A stretch of 64,000 nt of DNA, taken from assembly GCA_964590895.1 (NCBI GenBank), contig CAZPYV010000001.1, positions 262,164-326,163 of the forward strand, written 5' to 3'. Shown here piece by piece: positions 15,236 to 37,664 of this stretch (position 1 is the stretch's first letter; each line of letters opens with the position of its first letter). The notes beneath the pieces were generated by a model. It saw only the letters and a list, made by a program, of their open reading frames with translations. It made no database searches and was not told where the DNA came from. The DNA is from an uncultured Methanoregula sp. Its GTDB lineage: Archaea > Halobacteriota > Methanomicrobia > Methanomicrobiales > Methanospirillaceae. A program made the position numbers and the translations under genes.

Positions 15236-15621
15236 GGGGTTAGTAGATTTTCCTTTTTTTATTCGTGAAATCTTTGATCAGATAAGGGCATACAGACGGG
15301 TGTAAAGCGTACATCCTGATATGGACAACCATCACGTGGAATTGATTTCTGTGATAACCTCATGCATCGGGCTCTCCCGAAATATTTTGTCTTCCTTTTT
15401 TTTAGGCGTGGGCTTGTAAGACAAGATTTTGTGAACAAGATTGCTGATTGTTTGACACAACCAGAAAATCCGGTAATAAACGTGTTCTTTGCATTAGTCA
15501 ATTATAATCGCGGCGTCTGGTGCTGGTCCGGCAGGTGTTTTTAAAAAGAGTAATTTCAGATGGGTAAAAAGGATTGGTGATTTAGTTGAGATTTCCTGTT
15601 CTTTGTGTTCTGTTTTTTTGT

Positions 15622-16065: not shown

Positions 16066-16193
16066 TCGTCTTACTTAATTTTTTTGGATTCCTGAAATAG
16101 ATTTCTCAACTAAAAAATCCTCTACAAATAATTGTTAAGACCCACCACATTAAAAACATCCTTATTTCTCACATTTCACGTCAGAATATTTCT

Positions 16194-16250
16194 CTGCATT
16201 TCATATATGCCGTGCATTATCGTTTTGCAAATATTCAATATATCCCCCCA
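16194..16250 (+). promoter_or_regulatory. conserved upstream block of HEAT gene 1 (TATA-like TTCATATATG)
   Basis: ctgcatttcatatatgccgtgca...gcaaatattcaata recurs with few changes at 16927-16980, at the same distance (about 85-95 nt) from the start codon of the paralogue. Confidence 0.35.
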
Positions 16251-16294
16251 GACATTATGATTCATCCCAACAGGGTGGGACTGGAGAAGAAAAA

Positions 16295-16714
16295 ATGGAA
16301 AAAACATTCAATCAGTTAAAAGACAAGAACAGACCCGAGCGCTGGATGTCTGTTATTGCTCTTGGAAATTTTGGTACACCAGCGGTTGATTACCTTCACA
16401 AGGCATTGCATGATGACGACAAGTGGGTACGCTACATGGCTGCCGACGCACTGGGTAACATTGGGGATGTGCGTTCCATTGATCCACTTGTAAAACTCTT
16501 AAATGACAATGATCAGGATGTGCGGTTTGCAACAGTTTATGCACTAGGAACCATTGGACATCCTTCTGCTGTACCAGCACTCCAACAGACATGTGAGAAG
16601 GATAATTGCTTTGTTAGGATTGCCGCTGAAGAAGCACTCTTGAAACTCGGAGAACCCGATAAAAAATCTGGTGCGGGAAAAGCAGGATCATCCCCGTCAG
16701 CGCACAAACGGTAA
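16295..16714 (+). CDS. HEAT-repeat (PBS-lyase-like) protein
   Basis: The HEAT-like units repeat (DDKWVRYMAADALGNIGD..SIDPLVKLLND.DQDVRFATVYALGTIG). Confidence 0.8.
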   Translation: MEKTFNQLKDKNRPERWMSVIALGNFGTPAVDYLHKALHDDDKWVRYMAADALGNIGDVRSIDPLVKLLNDNDQDVRFATVYALGTIGHPSAVPALQQTCEKDNCFVRIAAEEALLKLGEPDKKSGAGKAGSSPSAHKR

Positions 16715-16926
16715 CAATAATCAAACTGTAAACTTTTTAAAAAAATTTTGCATTTTTTTCGTATCTTCGGGAATAATTTTTCCCGGAATGTACAATTCCA
16801 GGATAATCCCCGGCAGGCTAAATCTATCCAGACAAAGACAGATTGTTCCCCTTCTTTTAAACATCCAAAAACGATCCACCATATCAAGAGGTTACTCTTT
16901 TTCGGCTCTTACGACGGAATCATTCA

Positions 16927-16980
16927 CTGCATTTCATATATGCCATGCAATAACTACTGGCAAATGTTGATAATATTACT
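16927..16980 (+). promoter_or_regulatory. conserved upstream block of HEAT gene 2
   Basis: ctgcatttcatatatgccatgca...gcaaatgttgataat is the paralogous copy of 16194-16250. Confidence 0.35.
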
Positions 16981-17022
16981 TATGTGACTACTCATCATCC
17001 CCAAGCGGGGAGGAGTCGTTCT

Positions 17023-17409
17023 ATGCAGAATATAGTCGCAGCACTTGCAAAAAAGGATAATCTTGAACGGTGGAAAAACGTTGTAGATCTGGAAAAGTTT
17101 GGGCAACCGGCAACAGAATTTCTCGTACAGGCACTCGCAGATGATGATCGCTGGGTCAGGTACCTTGCTGCTGATGCACTGGCAAATATCGGAGCTACCA
17201 ATTCCGTGGACTCCATTGTATCACTCTTAAGAGATCCGGATCAGGACGTGCGCTTTGCTGCAGCAGCAGCACTGGGAAAACTTGGCGATCCAAAGGCGAT
17301 AAAGAGTCTGCAGGAAGTTGTCAAACGAGATAACGGTTATGTGAAGATTGCTGCAGAAGAATCATTAGAAAAATTATCCCCACAAGGTGCGGGATCTTCT
17401 TCACACTGA
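17023..17409 (+). CDS. HEAT-repeat (PBS-lyase-like) protein, tandem paralogue
   Basis: The repeat pattern matches the 16295 gene (DDRWVRYLAADALANIG..SVDSIVSLLRDPDQDVRFAAAAALGKLGD). I used the ATG at 17023, which is preceded by GGGGAGGAG. The track start at 16984 is GTG. Confidence 0.8.
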   Translation: MQNIVAALAKKDNLERWKNVVDLEKFGQPATEFLVQALADDDRWVRYLAADALANIGATNSVDSIVSLLRDPDQDVRFAAAAALGKLGDPKAIKSLQEVVKRDNGYVKIAAEESLEKLSPQGAGSSSH

Positions 17410-17581
17410 CAAATGAAATCGCCTCATATCTCATATCATCCCGTTTTCATTTTTGGTCTGATTCACACAGATCTGGCTTTACTCCTGCAAAGGGGCTCCA
17501 TTTATGTCCTGGGATTGCCCGGAAATTGTATGCTAAATCCCTTGTTAAGGCCCCAAAAAACAAGTGACCCCATAAGGCTTT

Positions 17582-20047
17582 CTAGCGGGAATGAAGTTGC
17601 CTGAAAACCCGGCTGGCATCAGATTTTTTCCTTTCATCAATGTTCTGGGCAATGGTAGAGATACCGATAATGTGACCTTCTTCATCCTTGATGGGTGAAA
17701 GGGTTACACTGACTTTAACACGGGATCCATCTTTTCGTAGCCGGATCGTATCGAAACGTTCAATGGTCTCACCAGTCGCCACCCTCTTTAGGAAGAGGGG
17801 GATCTGATCGCGAAATTCCGGAGGAATAATGAGGCTGATATGATTTCCAATCACCTCTTCTGCAAGATAGCCGTAATACCGTTCCGCAGCTTTATTCCAG
17901 CTCTGGATTGTGCCGTCAAGTGTTTTTCCGATTATCGCATCATTTGAAGAATTCACAATCGATGCAAGTATAGAGCGCAGCCGGTCGGATTCTGTTTTGT
18001 CGGTTAAATCTTCATATACGACAAACTGTTCACTGCTTTTAAGGGTAATCGGACAGAAATGGATCTGGCGGACAGACCCGTCTTTGCAGGTAATCGGAAA
18101 TAAGCGGGGTTTTGCCAGATCCCAATCTTCACAACGATCCTGATTCCAGGTCTTAATTGCGTTCGTGCGATCAGTAATTTCGGGAAATGCCTTTAAAAAC
18201 CAGTCTTTTTCTGTGGGAATATCAGTAATTGTGTACCCAAAAATTTTTTCGAATTTTTTGTTCAGGTACCGGTAATTTCCTGAACTGTCGATTAAGGATA
18301 AAGGAAATGGAGAGAGTTCAGTGATCATCCTGAAGCGCTCCTCATTTTCGCGGATTTTTTGTATCAGTTCCTGTTTTTCTGTGGTATCAATTCCAACGGA
18401 TTGGTATTCTATTACTTTTCTGTCGGTATTAAAAATTGCACGATCTGTCCAGAAATGCCACCGTATTTTACCGTCAGGCAAAATTACCCGGTGTTCGATC
18501 GTCCCTGTGGGATTTTCTAAAGTAAGTGAAGCGAGATGCTGTTTCATCAACCCGGCATCTTCGTCCGGCAAAACCACTTTATGTGGACTCCCGATGCACG
18601 CACTTTTGTTCAATCCAAAATACCGGCAATATGCATCATTGACAAACGTGATGATTCCATCGGGGGTGAACCGGCAGATAAATTCGGTCTGGTCCTCTAC
18701 CACATTCCGGAATCGCTCTTCGCTCTCAATATGTGCCAATTCGATCCGTTTCCGTTCAGAAATATCCCTAAAAAACCCTTCAACACCAGTGATATTTCCC
18801 TCTGAGTCGTACAGGAGCTGACTGTTTGTGGATACAATTACCGTAGATCCATCCCTTTTTTTTAGGGTAATTTCATAATCAGTAACTTTTTTCTCCCGGT
18901 AAATAGTTTCCAGAAATTGTTTGCGTTCCTGAGATGAATAGTAAAACTTTTCAGCAATATTCTGCCCGATTATTTCCTGAAGAGAATCGTAGCCCAGCAG
19001 TTTTGACGCTGAAGGGCTGGCCATTATAAGGTTGCCATCTTTGTCAGAGCGGTAGTATATGTCCTGAATATTATCAAGAATGGTCCTGTACAATAATTCA
19101 CTCTGACGAAGCGCTTCTTGCGATTCTTTAAGCTCTGTGATGTCCCGCCCCACAGACTGGCATTCGGTAAGGGTGCTGTTTTTATCATAGAACCCACGGG
19201 TATTCCACTGGTGCCAGCGATACTTTCCGGTTCTGTCCAGTATCCGAACTTCAGTATACATGCCCTGCTTGGTTTTATTTATATCAGTGATCCTTTCCCG
19301 TACAAGACCGTGATCCTCAGGGAATATATAGGAAAAAATATTCTGTCCGCAAACGCCTTTACTGGAGATTCCAAGGTAACGGCTCAAGGATTCATTGATG
19401 AACGTGATAGTCCCGTCAGGGTGCCAACGGCAGATATAGTCGGTCTGGTCTTCAACAATGCCACGGAACCGTGCTTCAGAGATCATCAGGCGCTCTTCAA
19501 ACCGAATCTGTTCTGTGATGTCTTCTCCAATTACCGTCATTCCCTCTTCCCGGTTATCAAATACCGTTGGTATCAGACGAACCCGGTAATGGTAATCTTC
19601 GTTTTGTCGGGTTACGACAAATTCCCTCTGGATTTCTCCGGTTACCTGGATCTCTTTAAAAACATCCGGAATGGAAAGACGCGAGATAATAGGGGAGGTA
19701 AGATCATCTACCCGGTTTCCGATCAGATCATTTCTGGGTAATCCAAGAACCGTAAGAGCGTTCTCATTAACATCGAGAATGCGCATTTCCTGATCGATCA
19801 TGATAATAAAATCAGCAGAAAATTTGAGCATGGCTGATACAGGCATCTTGTGTGAGATCGTGTAGACCTTTGCAGGGCCGTATGAATTGAGGGCAACCTC
19901 TCCGGAGATAAGAAGCATTTCAAGATATTTTGCTGTTGAGTTCCGGTTGAGTTTAAGTTTATTGGCAATATCTGTTATTGTGAGCCCGTTGCGGTGAAGT
20001 TTAAGGAGAGTCAGAATTTTCTTTTGGGGCTCTGGACGGATATCCAT
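17582..20047 (-). CDS. wHTH + multi-PAS (about 6 units) sensor protein without a recognisable output domain
   Basis: The N-terminal winged helix is LTITDIANKLKLNRNSTAKYLEMLLISGEV. PAS/PAC-like units then repeat up to the stop, each introduced by ..E.RFR..VE.. segments. I used the ATG at 20047 (MDIRPE) because the track start at 20092 is TTG. Confidence 0.85.
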   Translation of the reverse strand: MDIRPEPQKKILTLLKLHRNGLTITDIANKLKLNRNSTAKYLEMLLISGEVALNSYGPAKVYTISHKMPVSAMLKFSADFIIMIDQEMRILDVNENALTVLGLPRNDLIGNRVDDLTSPIISRLSIPDVFKEIQVTGEIQREFVVTRQNEDYHYRVRLIPTVFDNREEGMTVIGEDITEQIRFEERLMISEARFRGIVEDQTDYICRWHPDGTITFINESLSRYLGISSKGVCGQNIFSYIFPEDHGLVRERITDINKTKQGMYTEVRILDRTGKYRWHQWNTRGFYDKNSTLTECQSVGRDITELKESQEALRQSELLYRTILDNIQDIYYRSDKDGNLIMASPSASKLLGYDSLQEIIGQNIAEKFYYSSQERKQFLETIYREKKVTDYEITLKKRDGSTVIVSTNSQLLYDSEGNITGVEGFFRDISERKRIELAHIESEERFRNVVEDQTEFICRFTPDGIITFVNDAYCRYFGLNKSACIGSPHKVVLPDEDAGLMKQHLASLTLENPTGTIEHRVILPDGKIRWHFWTDRAIFNTDRKVIEYQSVGIDTTEKQELIQKIRENEERFRMITELSPFPLSLIDSSGNYRYLNKKFEKIFGYTITDIPTEKDWFLKAFPEITDRTNAIKTWNQDRCEDWDLAKPRLFPITCKDGSVRQIHFCPITLKSSEQFVVYEDLTDKTESDRLRSILASIVNSSNDAIIGKTLDGTIQSWNKAAERYYGYLAEEVIGNHISLIIPPEFRDQIPLFLKRVATGETIERFDTIRLRKDGSRVKVSVTLSPIKDEEGHIIGISTIAQNIDERKKSDASRVFRQLHSR

Positions 20048-20302
20048 TTCTTTTAAACAGGGAGTATTATTATAAAAAGATATGCCATGCAATTCTGCAA
20101 GGTTTAATAATATTTTAATGACAGGGAATAGATGTTAAAATTGTATCATACCGACAAAAAAATATTATTGAAAAATTTCCCCTGTGCATTGGTTAAAAAA
20201 AAACGTTTGCAGTTTTGCTCGTTGTGCAGGCAGTACCTCATAAGGCAATATCCAATTGCAGAGAACATGGCAAGTGTGCAACGCAAATAAAAAAATGAGC
20301 GC

Positions 20303-20569
20303 CTAATGTTTTGGCCGGTCATCCGTTACCAGTTTTTCACCACGAACAAAATCTTTAGTCAGGTCATGCTGCATCTGCTTGCGGGACGTCTGAAGCTTGA
20401 GCTGAAGAAACACCACGTAAAAATTAATGCCCACAATAACAATGACAAGCATCAGACTCACCCAGAGCATGATACCCTTTGCTGAGAGAAACGCTGCCCA
20501 TAAAAGAACAACAAACGAGATCAGGTAAAAAACAATCCACGTCTGAATTCCCGGCAGCTCCATACACAT
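20303..20569 (-). CDS. small hypothetical membrane protein (2 TM)
   Basis: Two long hydrophobic segments (WIVFYLISFVVLLWAAFL and MLWVSLMLVIVIVGINFYVVFL) are followed by a charged tail. Confidence 0.4.
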   Translation of the reverse strand: MCMELPGIQTWIVFYLISFVVLLWAAFLSAKGIMLWVSLMLVIVIVGINFYVVFLQLKLQTSRKQMQHDLTKDFVRGEKLVTDDRPKH

Positions 20570-20727
20570 CAGTTATTCGCCAAATGCATAAAAAATATCC
20601 GTGGTTTTTCGTTGGGGAATCACAAATACCAAATAGAACCTAAAAAAAACTGCACCGTAATTCCGGAAATTTTTTTTATCCGGAAAACATCACCATAATT
20701 TTTATAGAGTATCGCCCAGTACTTTGT

Positions 20728-21378
20728 GTGGAAAAAGGCGACATAATCACCCTTGCTGTCGGTCTTGTCATTGTGCTGGTGATAGCCGTACTTGCAAACC
20801 CCCAGTACCTCTCTTCCATCAAGAGTATTGGTGAGAAGCCAACTCAAGTCCCAACACCAACCCCGCTTCCGGTTCCAACAGTCGTATACCCGACACCGAC
20901 AACGACCATTGCCAAACCAACACCCATACCAGTAGTAACTGATGCCCCACTGTATCGGATCACTTTTACCGACAATCCCTTCAGTTACCCGGTCTTTAAA
21001 CTTCCCGAAAATATGCAGAGATACGGCGCATCAGATATTCTCTCGCAAAAAACAGAGTGGGTTCCCTTTGCATATATAGATGGAAAACAGGGAGGCCTTA
21101 CAAAGAATTTTTCCGTACCTTACCCATTATGGCTAATCAATACCACCGTTACAGCAAATACAAATCCACAATATGGCAAATTCCAGATGGCCCTCTGCTA
21201 TACATCAAATGGCATCATCATTGAAGGAGAGGAGATCTTTAACCGTGGTACTTCATACCGTCTTGTACAAGTGTCCAATACGGATATGTATATGATCATC
21301 ACTGCTGCATATATCGATAGTTATCATATCAGTCTTGAAGCTCCGCGGGATTACTATGATATGTACCGGCCTCGGTAG
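20728..21378 (+). CDS. hypothetical membrane-anchored extracellular protein with a Pro/Thr-rich linker
   Basis: The ORF starts at a GTG. An N-terminal anchor (ITLAVGLVIVLVIAVLA) is followed by a PT-rich stretch (PTQVPTPTPLPVPTVVYPTPTTT) and a globular region of about 130 aa. Confidence 0.5.
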   Translation: MEKGDIITLAVGLVIVLVIAVLANPQYLSSIKSIGEKPTQVPTPTPLPVPTVVYPTPTTTIAKPTPIPVVTDAPLYRITFTDNPFSYPVFKLPENMQRYGASDILSQKTEWVPFAYIDGKQGGLTKNFSVPYPLWLINTTVTANTNPQYGKFQMALCYTSNGIIIEGEEIFNRGTSYRLVQVSNTDMYMIITAAYIDSYHISLEAPRDYYDMYRPR

Positions 21379-21437
21379 TGTTGTTCGTTTTTTAGCTCTT
21401 TTTGTTTCATTGTCGTTTCCTGAAACGATCCACTGCA

Positions 21438-21490
21438 CGATTTGATGAGCGTTTTCTGTTTGACTGATGATGGGACCAACTGCTGAATTG
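21438..21490 (+). ncRNA. weak C/D-box sRNA-like candidate
   Basis: uUGAUGA lies at 21442-21448 and CUGA at 21464-21467, overlapping a second UGAUGA at 21465-21470. A 12-nt spacer follows, then CUGA at 21483-21486. The flanks cgat/attg could form a 4-bp terminal stem. The D'/C' overlap and the 15-nt first spacer are atypical. Confidence 0.2.
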
Positions 21491-21643
21491 GGTTTGTTGA
21501 TTTTTTCAAATCAGAGATTTGGTTTTTTTACGGCAGAATAACTAACAATACTCACGTAAAATGATCTATTTCAACACCTTTTTTTAAAGACTTCCAGCAC
21601 ATTGACCGATAAATATCTCTGATAATTCAAAAAAAGATTGCAG

Positions 21644-22690
21644 TTATTTTTTTAACCGCACTTCCATCTGCGGGAAGGGGATCAAAATCCCTTCAGCTGC
21701 AAAACGTTCTGCGATTTGTGTGTTGATGGAATCTTTTACTTCATCAGGAAGGTTATATTTGCGTGCCCAGACGTAGAGTATAAATTTCAGACTGGAATCC
21801 TGGAACTCTGAAAAAAATGCTTTTGGGGCTGGTTCTTCAAGAAGGTATTCGGTATTTTTAATAGTATTTTGTGCAATGTCAAGCAGGATCTCTTTTACCT
21901 TTTTTGGATCGCTACCATAGGCTACAGAAGCCGGGATAATAATTCTGATTTTTTGATCTGGTTCTGCATAATTTACAATTACATTGGTAGTTATCTTGTT
22001 ATTGGGTATCGTGACAATCTGGTAATCCAAAGTTTTTAAGCGGGTACTCCTCGGTCCGATACTCATTACATCCCCATAATACTGGTCTACCTTTATACGG
22101 TCGCCTATCCTGAACGGTTTGTCGACGGTAATAATTGCCCCGCCAAAGAAGTTAGAGATAAGATCCTGCGCTGCCAGAGCAACAGCCAGCCCGGCGATAC
22201 CAGCACCTGCAAGGAACGGGGTAATATTCACTTCAAAGATGGACAAGACGGCCATTAAAGCTGCAAACCAGATCACATATTTGACAATAAGTTCGAGCAG
22301 CTCTACTAACCGGTCATCCCAATCACCCTCCGAGTTTTCAGCCAGTTCATGACCATAGATGACAATGATATCGTGCAGGAAAGATGAGATGATCCATGCA
22401 CCGATCACAACATAAAATGCAGTAACGTACCGTGGATCAAGCAGCCATTGCAGGTTTGAGGGAAGAATGCCGAAATGACTGATCGCAAAATAGATTGCGA
22501 CAACAACGATAGCGACTTGGACCGGGGTACCAATTGCTGCAATAATGATATCGTCCCAATTCGTTTCCGTTTCTCCGGCTTTTGTTTTAAGCCAGTTAAC
22601 AACTGCCCGTACGATTAGGGCAATAAGCACGCCAAATACAACTGTTGCAGCTGCATACGCGTAATTGATATCTGAAATCCCTAGCTCCAT
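21644..22690 (-). CDS. mechanosensitive ion channel (MscS family)
   Basis: N-terminal TM helices are followed by the MscS beta-domain signature (FFGGAIITVDKPFRIGDRIKVDQYYGDVMSIGPRSTRLKTLDYQIVTIPNNKI). I used the ATG at 22690 (MELGISD) to avoid an overlap with hypD. Confidence 0.85.
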   Translation of the reverse strand: MELGISDINYAYAAATVVFGVLIALIVRAVVNWLKTKAGETETNWDDIIIAAIGTPVQVAIVVVAIYFAISHFGILPSNLQWLLDPRYVTAFYVVIGAWIISSFLHDIIVIYGHELAENSEGDWDDRLVELLELIVKYVIWFAALMAVLSIFEVNITPFLAGAGIAGLAVALAAQDLISNFFGGAIITVDKPFRIGDRIKVDQYYGDVMSIGPRSTRLKTLDYQIVTIPNNKITTNVIVNYAEPDQKIRIIIPASVAYGSDPKKVKEILLDIAQNTIKNTEYLLEEPAPKAFFSEFQDSSLKFILYVWARKYNLPDEVKDSINTQIAERFAAEGILIPFPQMEVRLKK

Positions 22691-23824: not shown

Positions 23825-23896
23825 GCCTCGGTAGGGTAGCGGACATCCTAGAAGCCTCCGGAGCTTTTGACCCGGGTTCAAGTCCCGGCCGAGGCG
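23825..23896 (+). tRNA. tRNA-Arg (anticodon CCG)
   Basis: I folded the cloverleaf manually. The acceptor stem is GCCUCGG/CCGAGGC with discriminator G. The D-loop is AGCGGACA. The anticodon stem is GAAGC/GCUUU with loop CU-CCG-GA. The T-arm is CCGGG-UUCAAGU-CCCGG. No CCA is encoded, and a T-rich tract follows. Confidence 0.9.
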
Positions 23897-23962
23897 CTCT
23901 GGTTTTTGTTTTAATCTTTTTGTCCCAGGAACACAAATTTTCAAAAAAAGAATAATCAAAAA

Positions 23963-28515: not shown

Positions 28516-29436
28516 TTACGGCCTTTTCCCTACAAGGACAATTACACCGGTGATTAAAAGCCCGATAAGTGCAGTTACCGGTGAAAGAGGAATTGAAGAT
28601 GGGCTTTTTTGAAGTGCCGGAGATTGTGTTCCTGCCGTACCAGGTAGATTCTGCGTTGTTGCAGCAGATGGGGAAATGCCAGCTGTTATTAATGACGTTG
28701 GATTACCAGAAGATACTCCCACAGTTGTTATGACCGGAGTTGGCGTTCGTGGAGGAAGAACCGTAAAAACCATGACAAGAGGACTTGTCAGTGCGGGGTT
28801 GCTCATCGTGATATAATATTGTCCGGGGGGCATGTCAACATGGAAACCATAATTGAAATATCCAGATCCACTTACCGGTGAAGAATATGTGCGAAGAGTT
28901 GTTCCGGAGATGTCTGTCAGATCAATCCGCAGATAAGATATTCCCCGCTCTGAAAAACCTGTCAACGACACGTAATCGGCAAAGGTCGCAGGGTTAGGAG
29001 TAAGGTTTGCATAAAATTCTGGTTTTTTCATGAACACTGACGTTGTCGAAGAGATTTCAGGATGGTCAAGATCTGTAGCCGTAAGAGTATATCGTGCAGT
29101 CTGCATCTTTTCAATTCCTTTGATACTCGATGTATACCATGCAAACTGCCAGCTACCATCAGGATTCACTTCAACAGGATTTCCTGCACCCGGAATTCCG
29201 TTGAGATCATATATGGGGACTCCCTCTAAAGGGAGACCGGGGCCGGTGATTCGCAGAGATATAATATTTCCAACAGTGTTTTGCCCATCAAAAATAATCG
29301 TGTCACCAATATAGCTCCCACCCGATCCACGGTAGGCAATGCTTACGGTCCCATTCACACCCAGCACCGGCTGGATAATACAAATTGCAGCAATCAGCAG
29401 CACAAGAACTAAAAAAAAACTTCGCATAATACTCAT
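28516..29436 (-). CDS. secreted or cell-surface protein with a signal peptide and a C-terminal TM anchor
   Basis: The N-terminal signal is FFLVLVLLIAAICIIQPVLG. A Ser/Thr/Pro-rich stalk precedes the C-terminal PLSPVTALIGLLITGVIVLVGKRP. Confidence 0.55.
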   Translation of the reverse strand: MSIMRSFFLVLVLLIAAICIIQPVLGVNGTVSIAYRGSGGSYIGDTIIFDGQNTVGNIISLRITGPGLPLEGVPIYDLNGIPGAGNPVEVNPDGSWQFAWYTSSIKGIEKMQTARYTLTATDLDHPEISSTTSVFMKKPEFYANLTPNPATFADYVSLTGFSERGISYLRIDLTDISGTTLRTYSSPVSGSGYFNYGFHVDMPPGQYYITMSNPALTSPLVMVFTVLPPRTPTPVITTVGVSSGNPTSLITAGISPSAATTQNLPGTAGTQSPALQKSPSSIPLSPVTALIGLLITGVIVLVGKRP

Positions 29437-29602
29437 TTTCTAGCCTCTCATTTAAGAGAATATCATTTTTTAAAGGGATAAATTTTTGTTATCGTCAGGA
29501 GCGTACGCTCAAAGATAATAAAAAGGAAGTATTGTTTTTTACCCTATAACGAAACTATATCTGTATTACAAAGGAAACTCTTGTATTCGAGGTAATTTGA
29601 TA

Positions 29603-31633
29603 ATGACCGACGTTGAGTTGGCAATAAAAAATGGAGAACTCCAGTTAAAAACAGCAATAACGACGATACAGGGAACATTTTCCTATGAAGATACAGCCTA
29701 TCATCTCCCCATTTCCTATGCACTGACGGGTATAGCTGTGCATGACCGGAATACCTCTTTGGATGTTTTTTCCCGTACAAAAGATAATTCACTGGTGGCC
29801 TCTGAAATAATCCTTGCAAAAAAAACTGCAGGGAATGGAAAAGAAGAATTATCCTGCACAGGTTTTATTGGCGATAGTACAATCCGTAAGCTTGGGTATT
29901 CACTTGTTGACGGTAGTATTCTTGGACTTGCACTCATTGTCGGAACCCCAGAAAGTGCCGGATCTGCAGCTGCCATCTGCCGCGAACTCCAGGAAAAATA
30001 TATGCTCACCTTCCTTGCCGGCCCTGTCATACCCTCATTATCATCTGCTGGTGTAAAACTGGGTCTTGATTATCGCCTGATCCCCCTTGGCTCAAGCGCG
30101 TTATATGGTGTGCACTTTGTCGATATCATTGCCCGCGTAGCCATGATGTTTGGGGGAGTCACTCCCGGAGATATGCACCGGCTTTTAACCTATGCAGCTG
30201 AACGGGCAAAGGCCATTGTTATCGCACTGCCCGGTCTTTCTGATGAGGAAATTGCGCTTGTTGATAGTATGCGGGTGCTTGGATTTCCCATACTGTCATT
30301 GGGAGATTATAAAAATGGTGCATGGATCTCTGCAACCCCGGAACATATTGTCCGAACCGGCATGGAACTAAAAGGTATTCGTGTCAATGTGACTGCAATT
30401 CCGATTCCCATGGGATGTTCTCCCGCGTTTGAGGGAAAAAGTATCCGGAAAGAAGAGATGTTCGTGGAGTTTGGTGGCGGCAGATCACCGGCATTTGAAT
30501 TGCTGCAAATGAAAAACGCAAATGAGATCAAAGACGGTCTGGTAACAGTCATTGGTCCTGAGATCGATTCCATGAAAGAAGGATCTGCAAATCCGCTGGG
30601 AATCATTATGGAAGTGGCCGGAAAAACCATGAAAAAAGATTATGAGCCGGTTCTCGAGAGACGGATTCATAATTTTGTTAACTACGGCGAAGGATCGTGG
30701 CATGTAGCCCAACGGGATCTCATCTGGGTCCGATTATCGAAAGAGGCTGTGGCAAAAGGTGTAAAGATCGAACATCTGGGAAAACTTCTCGCAAGTAAGT
30801 TCCGTATGGATTTTCCCCAGTTACTCGATGCGGTATCGGTCACTCTCATCACAGATCCGGAAAAAATACTTGTGGCAAAGACAGAGGCAGAACGGGTCTA
30901 TGATGAGCGGGATGCCCGCATCAAAGGTATGCGTGACGGGGATGTAAATACTTTTTATTCCTGCACGCTCTGCCAGACATTTGCACCGAACCATGTCTGC
31001 GTGATCACACCTGAACGCCCTGCACTGTGCGGAGCCATCAGCTGGCTCGATGGAAAGATCGCATACGAGATCTCGCCTGCCGGTGCAAACCAGCCGATCG
31101 AAAAAGGAGCGGCAATCAACGCATTAAACGGTGAATTTGATGGAGTAAACCGGTTCGTCAAAAAAGCTAGCCATGGAGAAATTGACCGGTGTTCACTCTA
31201 CAGCGTCATGGAATACCCGATGACCTGTTGCGGGTGTTTTGAATGCATCGCCCTGATGCTTCCGGAAGTGAACGGGATTATGGTTGTGAACCGTGAGTTC
31301 AAAGGTCTCACACCTTCGGGCATGTCATTTTCCACTCTTGCCGGCACAATTGGCGGCGGTGCACAGACACCGGGGTTTGCAGGAATTTCAAAAGGGTATA
31401 TTCTTTCTGACCGGTTCTTACAAGGTGAGGGGGGAATAGAACGCCTTGTCTGGATGCCTGCGCAACTTAAAGAAGAACTCAAACCGCGCCTGATAAAAAA
31501 ATTTAAAGAGCAGGGCAAACCGGACCTGTTTGATAAGATCGCAGATGAAACAAAAGCCGCCTCCATCGAAGATCTCATGGTGTATCTTGATGGCATAAAA
31601 CACCCGGCTCTGACTATGAAACCACTGGTGTGA
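29603..31633 (+). CDS. acsB: acetyl-CoA synthase catalytic subunit, full-length bacterial AcsB type (676 aa)
   Basis: The A-cluster ligand motifs are FYSCTLCQTFAPNHVCVITPERPALCGAISWLDG and CCGCFE. The protein is collinear from the N-terminus (MTD..., GFIGD, MMFGGVTPG, PAFEGKSIRK, ERRIHNFVNYGEG) to the C-terminus (DKIADET...HPALTM) with Moorella AcsB as I remember it. I used the ATG at 29603, which has GAGGT about 10 nt upstream. Confidence 0.93.
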   Translation: MTDVELAIKNGELQLKTAITTIQGTFSYEDTAYHLPISYALTGIAVHDRNTSLDVFSRTKDNSLVASEIILAKKTAGNGKEELSCTGFIGDSTIRKLGYSLVDGSILGLALIVGTPESAGSAAAICRELQEKYMLTFLAGPVIPSLSSAGVKLGLDYRLIPLGSSALYGVHFVDIIARVAMMFGGVTPGDMHRLLTYAAERAKAIVIALPGLSDEEIALVDSMRVLGFPILSLGDYKNGAWISATPEHIVRTGMELKGIRVNVTAIPIPMGCSPAFEGKSIRKEEMFVEFGGGRSPAFELLQMKNANEIKDGLVTVIGPEIDSMKEGSANPLGIIMEVAGKTMKKDYEPVLERRIHNFVNYGEGSWHVAQRDLIWVRLSKEAVAKGVKIEHLGKLLASKFRMDFPQLLDAVSVTLITDPEKILVAKTEAERVYDERDARIKGMRDGDVNTFYSCTLCQTFAPNHVCVITPERPALCGAISWLDGKIAYEISPAGANQPIEKGAAINALNGEFDGVNRFVKKASHGEIDRCSLYSVMEYPMTCCGCFECIALMLPEVNGIMVVNREFKGLTPSGMSFSTLAGTIGGGAQTPGFAGISKGYILSDRFLQGEGGIERLVWMPAQLKEELKPRLIKKFKEQGKPDLFDKIADETKAASIEDLMVYLDGIKHPALTMKPLV

Positions 31634-31637
31634 GATC

Positions 31638-32594
31638 ATGGTTTCTGATGTGAATTTTGGATGGAGCGGTACTATAGTAAAAGTAATTCTCGGTGCAACA
31701 AAATCAGATGGTGGAACCCGCAGGCTCTCATACCAGATTGGTGGAAGAACAACACTTCCGTTTCTTGAAAGGACTCCGGGCACTTCAGGTCCGCTCATCG
31801 CCTTCGAGATCTGTGATGACCCGCAGAACTGGTCCCCGATTGTCAGGAACTATTTAGGGGATGTTGTTAATGATTGCGGAGAATGGGCACATGCTGCAGA
31901 TTCTGTCTATGGCGCAGACATGATCCGCCTGTACCTGACAAGCACCCGGCAGCGGAATTTTTCAGATATTGCATCTGTGGGAAAAACGGTAGAATCCGTG
32001 TTATCCAAAACCAGCCTGCCACTCATCATTGAGGGAAGCAATGAACCAACAATTGACAGCGAGGTATTCTTAAAATGCGGCGAAGCAGGTGAAGGAGAAC
32101 GCCTGCTTCTTGGAACTGCTGAAGCGGGAAGGTACCGCAGTATTGCTGCTGCTGCAATGGCTTATAATCATTCAGTGATTGCCCAGTCGCCCATAGATGT
32201 CAATCTGGCAAAACAACTCAACATTCTGTTAAAAGAGATCGGTGTAGCAAGAGACCACATAGTCATCGATCCTTATACCGGCTCTCTGGGCTATGGATTT
32301 GAGTATTCCTATTCAGCCATGGAACGGATCCGGTTTGCTGCGCTTAAAGGCGATGCCGATCTTGCCATGCCGGTCATCTGCTCAGCCATTGATTCATTAA
32401 CCGTAAAGGAAGTAAGGGATGCAGAACCAGCCATTAAAGACGATATCGCAGTCCAGTGGGAATTCACAACCGGACTTGCAGCTGCAGCAGCCGGTGCAGA
32501 GATCATCTGTGTGCGGCACCCACGGACAATTTCCCTGCTCAGAAAAGCATTTACAAATCTTAAATCCGTAAAAACTGATGTGGGGGTGCAATAA
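31638..32594 (+). CDS. acsD: corrinoid iron-sulfur protein small subunit (AcsD / CdhD-like)
   Basis: The assignment rests on the size (318 aa), the position between acsB and acsC, and the TIM-barrel CFeSP small-subunit pattern (LIAFEI.D, SLPLIIEGS, IDPYTGSLGYGFEYSYS). The gene starts 4 nt after the acsB stop. Confidence 0.85.
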   Translation: MVSDVNFGWSGTIVKVILGATKSDGGTRRLSYQIGGRTTLPFLERTPGTSGPLIAFEICDDPQNWSPIVRNYLGDVVNDCGEWAHAADSVYGADMIRLYLTSTRQRNFSDIASVGKTVESVLSKTSLPLIIEGSNEPTIDSEVFLKCGEAGEGERLLLGTAEAGRYRSIAAAAMAYNHSVIAQSPIDVNLAKQLNILLKEIGVARDHIVIDPYTGSLGYGFEYSYSAMERIRFAALKGDADLAMPVICSAIDSLTVKEVRDAEPAIKDDIAVQWEFTTGLAAAAAGAEIICVRHPRTISLLRKAFTNLKSVKTDVGVQ

Positions 32595-32595
32595 G

Positions 32596-33930
32596 ATGGC
32601 ACTCAAAGCTCTTGACATCTACAAACTCCTGCCAAGAAAAAACTGCAAGGAATGCGGTGATCCCACCTGCCTGACCTTTGCTATGAAACTTGCCGGGGGA
32701 AAAACTGATGTAGACCTCTGTCCGTATCTCGATGATGCAGCCAAAGCGGTATTGGGCGCTACAACCCGCCCGCCAATCCGGCTTGTGAAACTCGGGATTG
32801 GTGAACGATCTTTTGCAGTTGGTGAAGAGTTTGTTCTCTATCGTCACGAAAAAACGTTTTATCACCCCCCGGGAATTTTATTTAAGATTTCAGACACTCA
32901 GACCACGGATGAAATTCAGGCAATAACAACGCGTGTCCGGGATGAATCGTTTACCCGTGTGGGAGCGGATCTCCGGTTTAACGGAATTGCGATTGAAAAT
33001 ACCAGTGGTAATCCAGATACTTTTGCACGAGCGGTTGAATCGGTTGAAAAAAATGCTGACCTGCCGCTTGTACTGATGGCCAGAGACCCTGCAGCATTAT
33101 CAGCAGCTCTTATGCATTGCGGAACCTATCGTCCACTAATCCACGCAGCTACTTCGGAAAATTACAAGGAATTCTGTGCACTTGCAAAAAACCATAGTTG
33201 CCCGCTGGTAATTAAAGAAAATAATATCGATACACTGGCACAACTCGCAAAAGACTGCACAGCAAATGGAGTGCAGGATCTGATACTGGATCTTTCACCG
33301 GAATCATTACAGGCATTTATTGTCCGGTCTACAACGATCCGCCAGCTTGCCATCACCCGGGCAGCACCCGATCTCGGGTACCCGGTATTTCTCGATGCGT
33401 CCGTAATGGAGATGCCGGATGCAGCAATTACACTGGGCATTGCAAAATATGCTTCAGTCATTATTTCTAATCCACTTTCTTTTGCAACTGCAAGAGCAGC
33501 ACTGACCCTGCGCCAGAATATTTATACCGATCCCCAGAAACCAATCCAGATGAACCCGGGTCTGTACCGTCTGGGAAATCCTGGAAAAGACGCCCCCGTC
33601 TTAATGACGGTAAATTTTTCGCTTACATTCTTTACCTTGCAGGGATATCTTGAATCCACCCGTGTGCCCTGCTTCATGCTGATTGTTGACACCGAAGGAC
33701 TCTCTGTGCTCACAGCAGTTGCTGCAGGAAAACTTAGTGAGATGCTGGTAAAAGACTCAATAAAAAAATTTGCAGTTGAAGATGAGGTATCCCACAGGAA
33801 ACTCATTATTCCCGGATACGCTTCCCCGCTCTCGGGCATGATAAACGAAGCAACCGGTTGGGAAGTGCTGGTCGGTCCACGGGATGCAGCAGAAATTGGT
33901 GATTTTTTAAATGAGGAGTGGAAACAATAA
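32596..33930 (+). CDS. acsC: corrinoid iron-sulfur protein large subunit (AcsC / CdhE-like)
   Basis: The N-terminal [4Fe-4S] motif is MALKALDIYKLLPRKNCKECGDPTCLTFAMKLAGGKTDVDLCPYL (C-x2-C-x4-C-x16-C). The ATG at 32596 lies 1 nt after the acsD stop. Confidence 0.9.
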   Translation: MALKALDIYKLLPRKNCKECGDPTCLTFAMKLAGGKTDVDLCPYLDDAAKAVLGATTRPPIRLVKLGIGERSFAVGEEFVLYRHEKTFYHPPGILFKISDTQTTDEIQAITTRVRDESFTRVGADLRFNGIAIENTSGNPDTFARAVESVEKNADLPLVLMARDPAALSAALMHCGTYRPLIHAATSENYKEFCALAKNHSCPLVIKENNIDTLAQLAKDCTANGVQDLILDLSPESLQAFIVRSTTIRQLAITRAAPDLGYPVFLDASVMEMPDAAITLGIAKYASVIISNPLSFATARAALTLRQNIYTDPQKPIQMNPGLYRLGNPGKDAPVLMTVNFSLTFFTLQGYLESTRVPCFMLIVDTEGLSVLTAVAAGKLSEMLVKDSIKKFAVEDEVSHRKLIIPGYASPLSGMINEATGWEVLVGPRDAAEIGDFLNEEWKQ

Positions 33931-35832
33931 ATGCGTACCGTTACTTTTATTCCCGGTTATCGTAAGATCGATGTTGAACAGGGCAGCACAATCCTTGATG
34001 CTGCCCAGCGTGCTGGATTAAATATTAACGTGGTCTGCGGCGGTCAGGGAAAATGCGGAAAATGCATTGTCTATATCCAGTCTGGAAAGACAAACTTTGA
34101 CCAGCAGAAATTCGGGCAGTTTTTTACAGCTGATGAACGTACACGTGGAGCCTGTCTGGCCTGCCAGACAACAGTAGAAAGCGATTTGCAGGTATTTATT
34201 CCAGAGAGTACATTGATCCAAGAACAGAAAATTCTCATAGATGGACAGGAAACCGCTATTGAATTTCACCCATCGGTCCGGAAATATTATGTTGAACTCC
34301 AACCTCCAACTATTTCCGATCCCTCGCCGGATCTTTCCCGTTTGCTCTGGGGCATCCAGAAAGCCGGAGGCCCTTCAGCAGAAAAAATTTATGCGCCTTT
34401 AGAAAATCTCCGGAAAATCCCGGCCATCCTTCGCCATTCCGAGTGGAAAGCCACCGGGACCGTTGCCCTTGTGCCGGGTGGATACCGCCTTGTTGATGTG
34501 CAGGAAAATAATACGGCAAAAAGACTCTATGGAGCAGCAGTAGATCTGGGCTCTACAACAATCGTTGTATACATCTGGGATCTGGTCTCTGGAAAAGTAG
34601 CCGGCGTTGCTTCGAATTACAACCGGCAGATCAGTTGTGGAGAGGATATTTTAGCCCGCGTGAATTTTGCCCGGAAGAACGGGCTTTTTAAACTCCAGAC
34701 CCTTGCTACCGAGAGCATTAATGCAGCTATCACTACGGCATCCAACACAGCAGGCATTGACCGTGAGGATATCTACGAGATTGTTGTTGCAGGAAATACC
34801 GTAATGACCCACATGCTGCTGGGTATCGATCCTGCATATATGATCTCCGAACCGTATGTTCCGGTAGTGCGAAGAGCACTATCGGTATCAACAGGCAGGA
34901 TTGGTATAACCTGTAATTCCAACGGGGGACTCTTTGTATTTCCGGCAGTCAGCGATTTTATAGGCGGTGACATCATTGCAGATATCCTTGCCTGTGGGAT
35001 GAGCGAGAAAGAAGAGATCTCCCTCTTGATCGATATTGGTACCAATTTTGAAGTTGTACTCGGCAACAGTGAGTGGATGTTTTCCTGCGCAGGTGCGGCC
35101 GGCCCCGCCCTCGAAGGCGGTGAGGTACTCTTTGGCATGCGGGCAAACCCGGGTGCAATTGAAAAGATCTCCATTGATCCGGGCACGCTCAACCCTGTGT
35201 ATTCCACAATCAATGGTGTAAAACCCCGTGGCATCTGCGGCTCCGGACTTATCGATCTTCTGGCAGAACTCCTCTGCACCTGTGTCATTGACAGAACCGG
35301 GCGCATCAACACAGGTATAGCCAATCCACGAATACGGACAAACGGCCACTTCCCCGAATACGTTATTGAATGGGCGAACGGAACCGGTATAGGAAAAGAT
35401 ATTGTCATTACCGAAAACGATATCAAAAATCTGATCATGAGTAAAGCATCAGTACATGCAGCCTGTGTCACCCTGATGAACCAGGCCGGTATTAACCGAA
35501 AAGAGATAAGTACCATCTATTTTGCCGGGGCATTTGGAAACTACATCAACAAAAAGAATGCAACCATCATTGGACTCATACCGGAAATTGGAATTGATAA
35601 GATCGTCAATATCGGAAACGGGGCGGTAACCGGTGCAAATATTGCGCTCATCAACCGGAGGAAGAGAAAAACTCTTGACGATATTGCATGCCGGATTGCC
35701 TATATTGAGCTCAATGCTGAGTCAGCATTCATGGATGAATATACCTCCAGCACATTCCTGCCCCATACTGATCTTACGCTTTTTCCGGAGGTACAGAAAC
35801 TCCTTGATACCTGCCGGATAACAAAGGAGTAA
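33931..35832 (+). CDS. acsV: reductive activator of the corrinoid Fe-S protein (RACo / AcsV-like; 2Fe-2S ferredoxin + ASKHA ATPase)
   Basis: The N-terminal plant-type ferredoxin motif is VVCGGQGKCGKCIV...ACLACQT. A large ASKHA-like domain follows (AVDLGSTTIV, IDIGTN). The start abuts the acsC stop. Confidence 0.85.
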   Translation: MRTVTFIPGYRKIDVEQGSTILDAAQRAGLNINVVCGGQGKCGKCIVYIQSGKTNFDQQKFGQFFTADERTRGACLACQTTVESDLQVFIPESTLIQEQKILIDGQETAIEFHPSVRKYYVELQPPTISDPSPDLSRLLWGIQKAGGPSAEKIYAPLENLRKIPAILRHSEWKATGTVALVPGGYRLVDVQENNTAKRLYGAAVDLGSTTIVVYIWDLVSGKVAGVASNYNRQISCGEDILARVNFARKNGLFKLQTLATESINAAITTASNTAGIDREDIYEIVVAGNTVMTHMLLGIDPAYMISEPYVPVVRRALSVSTGRIGITCNSNGGLFVFPAVSDFIGGDIIADILACGMSEKEEISLLIDIGTNFEVVLGNSEWMFSCAGAAGPALEGGEVLFGMRANPGAIEKISIDPGTLNPVYSTINGVKPRGICGSGLIDLLAELLCTCVIDRTGRINTGIANPRIRTNGHFPEYVIEWANGTGIGKDIVITENDIKNLIMSKASVHAACVTLMNQAGINRKEISTIYFAGAFGNYINKKNATIIGLIPEIGIDKIVNIGNGAVTGANIALINRRKRKTLDDIACRIAYIELNAESAFMDEYTSSTFLPHTDLTLFPEVQKLLDTCRITKE

Positions 35833-35839
35833 AAAAACT

Positions 35840-36874
35840 ATGGCAAAGATGATTCCTTCTCCCCATTCACAGGCAACGGGTATCGGGTCTCTTCCAAATT
35901 TGGATCCGCTTGAAGCTTGCCAGGATGTGCTGGAAATCTTTCCTGCGTTTCCTTATATTCCCTCCCTGCCCCGCAGGGGATTGTTAGAAAGAATTGTTTT
36001 TAATGATTCTGAACAGTTACCCGGCCGAATCATACGGGATGAACGGCTCTTCTTTGACAGCGCTTCTGACCAGACTGCAGCCATGGAACAGGTGTACATG
36101 GATTATGTTGAGGGAAATTTTGCACCCTATGCCCTGCACACCGAATATTCATCAGCATTTACCGAGATGATGATGCGTAAGCTTCCTGATATCAGCATCC
36201 TGAAATTCCAGATCACCGGACCGGTCACTTTCGGCATGCAGGTGGTAGATGAAGCCAAACGCCCGATCTATTTTGATACACAACTGGCCGATGTACTGGG
36301 AAAGATGCTGGCTTTAAAGGCACGCTGGTGCGAAGTGGAAATGCAGGAAAAGACCGGTGTTAAAGAGACCCTGATTTTTCTTGACGAACCCTATTTTGCA
36401 TCGCTGGGATCTTCTGTTGTTCCTGTTGACCAGGAGACGGTAAGGGCTAATTGGGAAGATGCTGCGGCACTGGTAAAAGGAGGGTTAGGGGTTCATTGCT
36501 GCTCGAATACGGACTGGGAATTTGTTATCGGCCTTAATCCTTCAGTTGTGTCACTCGATGCATATACAACGGCTAAAGAGTTCCTGTTGTACGCTGATAC
36601 GATCGTTCCTTATATGGAGCGCGGAGGTGTTGTCGCATGGGGCATTGTCCCTTCTGACCCACAGCTTTTTACTCAAGAGACCACGGATTCACTCTATAGC
36701 AAATATATCGATATCCGCACGCGGCTCTGTAACTGTATGCCAGAAGATCTCTTTGATGCCCAGTCATTAATTACACCAAGTTGTGGGATCCGTTTTGCTG
36801 ATCGCCCCACTGCCCGGGCAATTATGCAGGCAGCAGCAGAAATTTCGCATCGTATCCGTAATAAAAACGGATGA
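35840..36874 (+). CDS. core MetE-like (cobalamin-independent methionine synthase C-terminal barrel only) Zn-dependent methyltransferase
   Basis: At 344 aa this is about half of a full MetE. The N-terminal motif TGIGSLP resembles T..GS.P. A candidate Zn-ligand motif GVHCCSNTDW fits H-x-C, and ITPSCGIRF fits the C-terminal P.CG. The family call is by pattern, not by search. Confidence 0.6.
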   Translation: MAKMIPSPHSQATGIGSLPNLDPLEACQDVLEIFPAFPYIPSLPRRGLLERIVFNDSEQLPGRIIRDERLFFDSASDQTAAMEQVYMDYVEGNFAPYALHTEYSSAFTEMMMRKLPDISILKFQITGPVTFGMQVVDEAKRPIYFDTQLADVLGKMLALKARWCEVEMQEKTGVKETLIFLDEPYFASLGSSVVPVDQETVRANWEDAAALVKGGLGVHCCSNTDWEFVIGLNPSVVSLDAYTTAKEFLLYADTIVPYMERGGVVAWGIVPSDPQLFTQETTDSLYSKYIDIRTRLCNCMPEDLFDAQSLITPSCGIRFADRPTARAIMQAAAEISHRIRNKNG

Positions 36875-36896
36875 TTGCAGTCAGAAAGGAACATCC

Positions 36897-37664
36897 ATGT
36901 CCCACCATCCCTTTGTCATAGTAATTTCCGGAAAAGGCGGGACCGGAAAGACCACCCTCAGTTCACTGCTCATCCGCTCCTTACTCGAAACTGGAGAAAA
37001 GCCGGTGCTCGCAGTAGATGCTGACCCTAATGCAAATCTTCACGAGGCTCTTGGGGTTACGGTCGGTGAGACGCTGGGCAGCATGCGCGAAGAAGCATTT
37101 ACAAGAAAGATACCTCCCGGAATGAACCGGCATGATTATGTCCGTTTCAGGTTCCGGCAGGCGCTTGTTGAAGCAGAAGGATTTGATCTCATTGCAATGG
37201 GAAGACCTGAAGGCAGCGGGTGTTACTGTTTTGCAAACGATCTCCTTTCAGAATGTATAACAGAGCTGGAACGGGAATATCGTTTCATTGTTATCGACAC
37301 TGAAGCAGGAATGGAACATATCAGCAGGGGGACGATAGGAAAACCCAATATGCTGTTGATAGTCAGTGATCCCGGAGCACGGGGGCTGCGAACAATAGTA
37401 CGAATACGAGAGATCGCCACCCAGCTCGGGCTGGAACCGGCAAAGATCCATATCGTTTTTAATAAATACAAAACCGGAACTGCCCCTGTGGATATCGGCA
37501 ATGAAACGCCTATTGCAATTCTTCCTTATGATCCAAAAGTAGAGGCTGCCGATCTTGCTGCAACGCCGGTTTCACAAATTCCTCCTGACAGTCCCGCCCG
37601 GATTGTTGTAAAGGGGCTTGCAGAAAAAATCAGCACCCTTGCAAAAGAAAACACCAATCATTAA
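36897..37664 (+). CDS. cooC: CooC/AcsF-type nickel-insertion ATPase
   Basis: The deviant Walker A is SGKGGTGKTT and the metal-binding C-x-C is GSGCYCFAN. I used the ATG at 36897 (MSHHPF); the track start at 36783 would overlap the upstream gene. Confidence 0.85.
   Translation: MSHHPFVIVISGKGGTGKTTLSSLLIRSLLETGEKPVLAVDADPNANLHEALGVTVGETLGSMREEAFTRKIPPGMNRHDYVRFRFRQALVEAEGFDLIAMGRPEGSGCYCFANDLLSECITELEREYRFIVIDTEAGMEHISRGTIGKPNMLLIVSDPGARGLRTIVRIREIATQLGLEPAKIHIVFNKYKTGTAPVDIGNETPIAILPYDPKVEAADLAATPVSQIPPDSPARIVVKGLAEKISTLAKENTNH

Follow-up and report, generated by a model that had tools for sequence, protein, structure and literature searches.

The 64-kb stretch of DNA analyzed here, referred to as the window, comes from an uncultured Methanoregula sp. 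and carries at positions 29603-37664 a cassette of six co-directional open reading frames (ORFs) built around an acetyl-CoA synthase (ACS) and its corrinoid iron-sulfur protein (CoFeSP). All six are on the plus strand. acsB (29603-31633) codes for a bacterial-type acetyl-CoA synthase of 676 aa with three domains, including the N-terminal one, and acsD (31638-32594) and acsC (32596-33930) code for the small (318 aa) and large (444 aa) subunits of CoFeSP, the latter with an N-terminal [4Fe-4S] motif. They are followed by a gene for a RACo/AcsV-like ATP-dependent reductive activator of corrinoid proteins (33931-35832, 633 aa), a gene for a 344-aa protein named P5 here (35840-36874), which is a MesB-like single-barrel protein of the MetE fold and a predicted zinc-dependent thiol methyltransferase, and a gene for a CooC/AcsF-type P-loop ATPase of nickel insertion (36897-37664, 255 aa). 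The intergenic gaps are 4, 1, 0, 7, and 22 nt, with the stop codon of acsC directly abutting the start codon of the RACo gene, and every one of the six starts has a Shine-Dalgarno-like GGAG or GAGG upstream. The coordinates, gene order, and spacing agree with those in a first-pass annotation made from the sequence alone.

An archaeal promoter element, ACGAAACTATAT, is located at 29549-29562 on the plus strand, 40 nt upstream of the acsB ATG. It combines a B recognition element (BRE), ACGAAA, with the TATA box CTATATCT at 29555-29562, a reading that rests on the known archaeal consensus. Across 64 orthologous upstream regions aligned with MAFFT, the element was conserved to at least 80%, and the window has a single copy of it, where 0.01 would be expected by chance. 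Judged from the sequence, the six genes probably form one operon driven by this conserved BRE/TATA promoter. Scans with sigma-70 promoter and intrinsic-terminator models, which are unsuited to an archaeon, gave counts no higher than the shuffle expectation, and no regulatory RNA was found near the operon with Rfam.

The predicted products of the first three genes are closer to bacterial ACS and CoFeSP than to the archaeal Cdh proteins. AcsB matched the NCBIfam model NF040764 as a full three-domain protein with 907.7 bits (cutoff 800), and it scored 630 bits against the ACS of Carboxydothermus hydrogenoformans and 589 bits against that of Moorella, versus 380 bits against CdhC of Methanosarcina. 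The alignments span residues 27-675 with the ACS of C. difficile and residues 73-675 with that of C. hydrogenoformans, and AcsB keeps the N-terminal domain that archaeal CdhC lacks. The A-cluster ligands, C454-x2-C457-x8-C466-x9-C476 and C543-G-C545, correspond residue for residue to those of C. hydrogenoformans ACS. AcsD matched NF003376 (354.6 bits) and PF03599, and its best match in the PDB was the small subunit of Moorella CoFeSP (222 bits, full length). AcsC matched NF003195 (556 bits) and, over its full length, the gamma subunit of C. hydrogenoformans CoFeSP (401 bits), and its [4Fe-4S] motif C17-x2-C20-x4-C25-x16-C42 is present. Both subunits are full-length matches to the structures 2h9a_A/B and 4djd_C/D, and they are predicted to bind a corrinoid.

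In the activator, the four Pfam domains Fer2, RACo_linker, Raco_middle, and RACo_C_ter were all matched, and a four-cysteine motif of the 2Fe-2S type is formed by C36, C41, C44, and either C75 or C78. The protein is filed under the RACo family and not under the AcsV equivalog, because it scored 548 bits with the AcsV model NF040756, below the cutoff of 800. The CooC-like protein belongs to CbiA/AAA_31, and its best PDB match was CooC1 of C. hydrogenoformans (69 bits); it has the deviant Walker A motif GKGGTGKT, and C109-Y-C111 aligns with the CxC nickel site of CooC1 (3kje). No curated NCBIfam model was matched at its cutoff. It is most likely an insertase of the CooC/AcsF kind that matures the A-cluster of AcsB with nickel. 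The metal-binding motifs of AcsB, AcsC, RACo, and CooC had been described as intact, and the alignments and motif checks bear this out, with no disrupted ligand seen. All components of the operon are of bacterial type as far as sequence comparison goes.

P5 is the member of the operon that sequence searches left without a name. No match was obtained in Pfam (E-values up to 10), in NCBIfam, or, with phmmer, in the PDB, where two profile searches gave nothing usable either; because of this, the protein was identified by its fold, its conserved ligands, and its gene context. An exhaustive profile search placed it in a family of 1591 clusters at 50% identity (E ≤ 1e-3), of which 314 were reached at E ≤ 1e-30. 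In an alignment of 49 members with 27-54% identity, E183, H219, C221, D240, and C315 are invariant, and 90% or more of the members share S17 of the IGSLP motif and D182 of the DEP motif. The MesB protein DET0516 (Q3Z939) of Dehalococcoides has the zinc ligands H214, C216, D235, and C311, and contacts homocysteine through residues 15, 69, and 177 (PMC7857596). The spacing of the zinc ligands in P5 is the same, offset by four or five residues, and the equivalence of S17 and D182 to Ser15 and Asp177 is likewise taken from spacing, not from direct alignment. The MetE catalytic domain PF01717 was reached by 8 of the 49 relatives, and in an alignment with the family profile the DEP and HxC motifs lined up with those of MesD (3rpd), though at a marginal E-value.

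The structural model points in the same direction. A shallow alignment gave an AlphaFold2 model with a predicted local distance difference test score (pLDDT) of 68.8, and a diverse alignment gave one with a pLDDT of 95.8, which was used. In a Foldseek search with this model, MetE catalytic barrels took all of the top 22 places, MesD and then uroporphyrinogen decarboxylase came next, and no structure of a coenzyme M (CoM) methyltransferase of the MtaA type (MT2) was among the top 50. The best matches had E-values of about 2e-8 and template modeling (TM) scores of 0.60-0.63 normalized on the query. P5 is thus modeled as a single MetE-type barrel of 344 aa without the folate-binding N-terminal barrel. 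The first-pass annotation had called the fifth gene core-MetE-like; this stands at the level of the modeled fold and active site, including the zinc ligands, and it has no counterpart in sequence matches to Pfam, NCBIfam, or the PDB. For MesB, a minimum phmmer score of 130-173 bits to DET0516 has been used to delimit the family (PMC7857596), and P5 is placed as MesB-like by its fold, zinc ligands, and context, not by that score. It is probably a methyl-CoFeSP:homocysteine methyltransferase. At E ≤ 0.1 for Meth_synt_2, 41 of the 49 diverse members, including the protein in the window, are without a Pfam family, and most public entries of the subfamily read 'hypothetical protein', as it lies out of reach of the Pfam and NCBIfam models. 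The organism names given in public records for P5 homologues are Methanoregula or Methanoregulaceae.

The cassette is conserved throughout the family. When one genome of each GTDB species was scanned with the P5 alignment, 189 loci were returned, and the best 80, which were examined, all belong to Methanoregula or to metagenome-assembled genomes of Methanoregulaceae, with 65-92% identity. Within these best 80 of 189, tblastn found the same layout at every locus that was long enough, namely SIS, MBL/ACT, and surface-protein (minus strand) genes, then AcsB-AcsD-AcsC-RACo-P5-CooC, then pdaD and HAD (minus strand) genes, and the cultured Methanolinea mesophila carries the same six genes. Methanoregula boonei and Methanoregula formicica are not among these 80 loci. 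The pairwise ratio of nonsynonymous to synonymous substitutions (dN/dS) was 0.05-0.15 for each of the six genes, and 0.06-0.11 for acsB, which indicates strong purifying selection. In AcsB, conservation was 64% over residues 1-72, 78% over residues 73-263, and about 86% in the catalytic domains. The conserved order, low dN/dS, and conserved promoter argue that the cassette is old, maintained, and presumably expressed, in agreement with the earlier statement that it is not decaying. Its GC content of 0.47-0.49 is the same as that of the surroundings, and recent horizontal transfer was ruled out by the unremarkable GC content together with the family-wide synteny.

Two further observations concern the integrity of the cassette. 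In seven Methanoregula genomes (L017, L018, L025, L030, L036, L038, and L070 in our numbering of loci), an insertion of 1.4-3.4 kb lies between acsC and the RACo gene and consists of unrelated ORFs for secreted or membrane proteins (for example, L017:6700-8090 and L030:4730-8090). The operon can therefore be split at this point, which suggests two separable sub-operons. Methanoregula sp. SKADARSKE-2 (L057, CP121470.1), with 1,949,073 bp the smallest complete chromosome of the set, has the full cassette and its flanks, and it can therefore be argued that the module is not dispensable. Other complete chromosomes with the cassette are OY781161.1, OY970061.1, OY970361.1, OY969564.1, and ERZ21878136 contig_13.

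The cassette had been described as devoid of carbon monoxide dehydrogenase (CODH) and of the pterin methyltransferase AcsE. Pfam searches of 48 ORFs across the window found neither a CODH of the Prismane/CdhA type nor a methyltransferase of the Pterin_bind/AcsE type. In bacteria, CoFeSP is methylated from methyl-pterin by AcsE, a separate enzyme. A CooS homologue within 10 kb of the cassette was likewise found neither in the window nor in 79 of 81 other cassette loci. The two exceptions are Methanolinea mesophila, where cooS (652 aa, Prismane family) and cooC form a transcription unit of their own on the same strand, 2.7 kb downstream (L083:13737-16552), and Methanoregula sp. 7_bin.123, where the contig with the cassette also has a cooS-cooC pair, 7.8 kb upstream of acsB (L084:2838-5692, JBDKTL010000029.1). 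At the matching positions of the window this unit is absent. With the CooS of Methanolinea mesophila as query, many CooS proteins of Methanoregula and other Methanoregulaceae were retrieved at 67-79% identity, and the cooS-cooC pair recurs as a unit that is widespread in the family. M. boonei has a clade E-2 CooS with CooC, and both M. boonei and M. formicica have a complete archaeal cdhA-cdhB-cdhC-cdhD-cdhE-RACo cluster (Inoue 2019 supplement). The absence of CODH and AcsE holds for the operon and for the ORFs scanned in the window; CODH-less is true at the operon level only, and CooS and CooC are encoded elsewhere in relatives.

The gene context of distant relatives of P5 supports its association with CoFeSP. 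A metagenome scan with distant family members returned 80 loci, of which 43 are at least 8 kb long. Three distant representatives looked up separately are on contigs of only 2.6-3.9 kb. AcsC was encoded in 16, AcsB in 14, and a CooS-type CODH in 12 of the 43 longer loci. One of them (L109) has a complete bacterial Wood-Ljungdahl cluster in the order FolD-AcsD-CooS-AcsB-AcsC-MetV-MetF-P5-radical SAM-AcsE. Another (L149) and seven more have the order P5-CooC-CooC-CooS-oxidoreductase-AcsB-AcsD-AcsC, and in L149 a gene resembling HNH homing endonucleases (L149:16048-16653) sits between the Fe-S/FAD oxidoreductase gene and acsB. A third type (L139:239-9025, Ga0209723_1000217) has the order pta-P5-acsB-acsD-acsC-RACo with no CODH in the 12 kb covered. 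The last contig is of high GC content and apparently bacterial, with sugar-nucleotide and glycosyltransferase genes after the cassette, and its architecture is the closest to the operon of the window outside the Methanoregulaceae. The recurrent linkage to AcsC and AcsB provides strong guilt by association for a P5 family that works with CoFeSP. Its members occur in complete pathways as well as in pathways to which no CODH is linked.

The first-pass annotation was unaware of such a role being established in a methanogen; the link itself, however, had already been noted in this group. Price, Deutschbauer and Arkin (2021) defined MesB, linked it to CoFeSP, and reported mesB-acsCD operons in methanogens (PMC7857596). 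The association of MesB with CoFeSP is therefore already published, and the operon belongs to a known kind. It resembles the MesB family in protein size, in zinc-ligand spacing, in its linkage to acsC and acsD, and in its presence in Methanomicrobiales beside MesA; unlike what is described in the accessible part of that paper, where the six-gene architecture without CODH was not found, it is a complete cassette of six genes. The full bacterial-type architecture with unlinked CODH and its conservation across the family were not found described in the literature compared, which did not take in Adam et al. 2018 (PNAS).

The closest functional parallel is found in Dehalococcoides mccartyi, whose Wood-Ljungdahl pathway is reportedly incomplete, as Zhuang is said to have described in 2014. 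Both systems have AcsB, AcsC and AcsD, and a single-barrel MetE-type enzyme of about 343 aa with H-x-C...D...C ligands, without AcsA or AcsE alongside, and by analogy the flow from acetyl-CoA through CH3-CoFeSP to homocysteine, with CO as by-product, may be shared. Deobald (2020) characterized the Dehalococcoides core-MetE and proposed the route from acetyl-CoA through AcsB and AcsCD to core-MetE (PMC7005905). However, the genes of the Methanoregulaceae form one operon that includes RACo and the nickel insertase, whereas the core-MetE gene of D. mccartyi sits with genes of the S-adenosylmethionine (SAM) cycle (PMC7005905). The host also differs, being a methanogenic archaeon with its own methyl-tetrahydromethanopterin (methyl-H4MPT) and, according to PMC7857596, MesA. 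In addition, D. mccartyi is defined by a genome-wide absence of CODH, and an incomplete pathway of this type also lacks AcsE and MetF, whereas the absence seen here applies to 64 kb, and relatives of the host have CooS and CooC and, in M. boonei and M. formicica, CdhA. Because relatives of the host encode CooS/CooC, and some also CdhABCDE, CO need not be excreted.

Compared with complete CODH/ACS systems, the operon combines familiar parts in a different selection. Like the clusters of Moorella and Carboxydothermus and those of the P5-bearing relatives L109 and L149, it groups AcsB with its N-terminal domain, AcsC and AcsD, RACo, CooC, and a P5-family gene. However, the bacterial clusters have CODH directly beside AcsB, and L109 also has FolD, MetF, MetV, and AcsE, none of which is in the operon of the Methanoregulaceae. 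With the archaeal CdhABCDE systems it shares the overall chemistry and the beta-delta-gamma-RACo gene order found in the cdh clusters of M. boonei and M. formicica. In contrast to them, its beta subunit has the bacterial N-terminal domain and the higher score to bacterial ACS (630 versus 380 bits to CdhC), its delta subunit is the short bacterial form of 318 aa, and the alpha and epsilon subunits are missing.

The operon thus reads as a complete bacterial-type module for handling methyl and carbonyl groups, minus CO dehydrogenase, in what appears to be a hydrogenotrophic methanogen. In the mechanism that we favor, RACo would keep the corrinoid of CoFeSP in the Co(I) state, AcsB would cleave acetyl-CoA and load the methyl group on this corrinoid, and P5 would activate homocysteine at the zinc site formed by H219, C221, D240, and C315 and take over the methyl group to yield methionine. 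A CooS/CooC pair encoded apart from the operon would oxidize the CO released and thereby reduce ferredoxin. That CH3-Co(III)FeSP is the methyl donor of P5, and homocysteine the acceptor, is likely. The whole chain, with acetyl-CoA cleavage by AcsB loading the corrinoid and an unlinked CooS oxidizing the CO, has in our judgment slightly less than an even chance of being correct. We propose only tentatively, and with some doubt, that in the hydrogenotrophic methanogens dominating peat and lake sediments the operon is a small acetyl-CoA decarbonylase which channels the methyl group of assimilated acetate into methionine and SAM, bypassing methyl-H4MPT, while the CO is oxidized by a separate CooS with reduction of ferredoxin.

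Two considerations favor the cleavage direction. It is preferred because bacterial-type CoFeSP needs a separate pterin methyltransferase and none accompanies the cassette, and because archaeal Cdh, where present, already covers acetyl-CoA synthesis. A similar arrangement has been observed in D. mccartyi, which uses AcsB and AcsCD without AcsA and AcsE, and whose core-MetE methylates homocysteine from methylcobalamin (PMC7005905). Similarly, MesB has been predicted to draw its methyl groups from CoFeSP (PMC7857596). P5 is the only methyltransferase of the cassette, and being MesB/core-MetE-like it fits a transfer of methyl groups from methyl-corrinoid to homocysteine, as in Dehalococcoides. The earlier idea of an acetyl-CoA-driven methyl-corrinoid generator is supported in part.

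Several points weigh against this interpretation. The N-terminal domain of AcsB, which in bacteria is the CODH-docking and tunnel domain, is retained and 64-78% conserved, and CooS is sometimes a near neighbor of the cassette; both fit an ordinary synthetic CODH/ACS. Relatives of P5 occur in complete Wood-Ljungdahl clusters with AcsA, AcsE, and MetF, and therefore membership in the family is by itself no sign of cleavage. A pterin:CoFeSP methyltransferase or CdhA may be encoded elsewhere in the source genome, outside the 64 kb. Moreover, a hydrogenotrophic methanogen has abundant methyl-H4MPT, and MesA was present in 12 of 12 Methanomicrobiales proteomes and MesB in 6 (PMC7857596 S1 Table). 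With methyl-H4MPT plentiful and MesA at hand, an acetate-derived methyl group is therefore not needed as it is in Dehalococcoides.

These points lead to the strongest alternative, that the cassette codes for an ordinary synthetic ACS. A CODH acting in trans, either CooS/CooC or CdhAB, would provide CO, a methyltransferase whose gene lies elsewhere would methylate CoFeSP from methyl-H4MPT, and P5 would tap CH3-CoFeSP for methionine, much as tapping of the methyl pool has been proposed for MesB in organisms with a complete Wood-Ljungdahl pathway. The cooS-cooC pairs near the cassette in Methanolinea mesophila and 7_bin.123, the wide distribution of CooS in the family, the conserved N-terminal domain, and the P5 relatives inside complete clusters of the L109 and L149 types are all consistent with it, and clade E CODHs are known to co-occur with ACS beta subunits (Inoue 2019). 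However, AcsC and AcsD are of the bacterial type that needs a separate methyltransferase, and no pterin methyltransferase was found among the ORFs scanned in the window. Furthermore, cooS is unlinked in nearly all of the cassette loci and never lies in the transcription unit of the cassette, and M. boonei and M. formicica already own an archaeal Cdh for synthesis. Acetate would also be a required carbon source of cultured Methanoregula and Methanolinea, a point for which a literature search found no support. We regard a synthetic role as rather unlikely, while taking it seriously.

A second alternative concerns the acceptor. P5 could methylate another thiol, such as CoM, in which case the cassette would feed the methyl group of acetate to methanogenesis, bypassing H4MPT and Mtr. 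In its favor are the methanogenic host, the lack of a curated family for P5, and the H-x-C...C zinc motif, which MetE-type enzymes share with methylcobamide:CoM methyltransferases. However, the ranking of the Foldseek matches, with MetE, MesD, and uroporphyrinogen decarboxylase and without MtaA-type MT2, speaks for a methionine synthase. The near-invariant IGS(17)LP, which we take to correspond to the IGSFP motif of MetE, and D182-E183-P appear, judged from spacing, to coincide with the Ser and Asp that bind homocysteine in MetE and MesB. In addition, relatives of P5 are found in Wood-Ljungdahl clusters of non-methanogenic bacteria beside MetF, and Methanoregula is not known to be aceticlastic. 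A role in CoM methylation is accordingly very improbable. Finally, the view of the cassette as what is left, silent or decaying, of a bacterial Wood-Ljungdahl cluster gained by horizontal transfer would account for bacterial-type components in an archaeon and for the lack of CODH and AcsE genes in the operon, but with all ligand motifs intact, low dN/dS in every gene, order and position conserved across 80 species-level genomes with 65-96% identity, a conserved promoter, and the GC content of the surroundings, it has almost no chance of being right and was effectively ruled out by dN/dS and conservation.

The Methanoregulaceae are among the main methane producers of peatlands and freshwater sediments. 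So far, genomic evidence that CoFeSP passes its methyl group directly to a core methionine synthase is clearest in the family-wide ACS/CoFeSP-MesB operon; this reaction has, to our knowledge, been predicted and never demonstrated. If acetyl-CoA is cleaved as in the favored mechanism, carbon from acetate would reach the methyl pool of methanogens regarded as 'strictly hydrogenotrophic', CO would be an intermediate inside the cell, and the interpretation of isotope labeling in peat and freshwater ecosystems would be affected. If the operon is indeed a decarbonylase, biosynthetic methyl groups would be supplied without draining the methanogenic cycle, the ferredoxin of which would even be replenished, and the reverse use of ACS known from Dehalococcoides would be widespread in Archaea.

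The genes flanking the cassette are unrelated to it, as had been stated before. On one side of the operon lies a gene for a secreted or anchored protein of 306 aa, and on the other side lies pdaD. The 306-aa protein is encoded divergently at 28516-29436 on the minus strand, and carries a signal peptide and, at its C terminus, a hydrophobic anchor, without a Pfam match. Its counterparts in two other loci (L002 and L084) match PEGA and CarboxypepD_reg domains, and with 24-87% identity it evolves much faster than the cassette. The other ORFs identified with Pfam in the window are those of an ordinary archaeal chromosome, and include HypD, an M42 peptidase, an aminotransferase, SIS, MBL+ACT, PdaD, HAD, FtsZ, Asd, DapA/B, ThiN, PriL, PCNA, FttA, a proteasome subunit, F420-glutamyl ligase, MoaA, and a chemotaxis cluster.

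The chemotaxis and signaling cluster extends over 2133-15235 of the window and contains two CheW, CheR, a hybrid histidine kinase, and a PAS kinase, together with two methyl-accepting proteins in which HAMP_2 repeats are unusually numerous. The first of these has 908 aa with 3 HAMP_2 and an N-terminal receiver domain, and the second has 1425 aa with 7 HAMP_2. A stretch of lower GC content lies at 14000-22000 (0.40-0.43 versus about 0.47 elsewhere), and this is most pronounced at 15235-17582, a region of about 2.3 kb with only short ORFs (at most 147 aa) and without an Rfam match. A tRNA-Arg gene (anticodon CCG) at 23825-23897 on the plus strand, between hypD and the M42 peptidase gene, was the sole match of the window in Rfam and ARAGORN.

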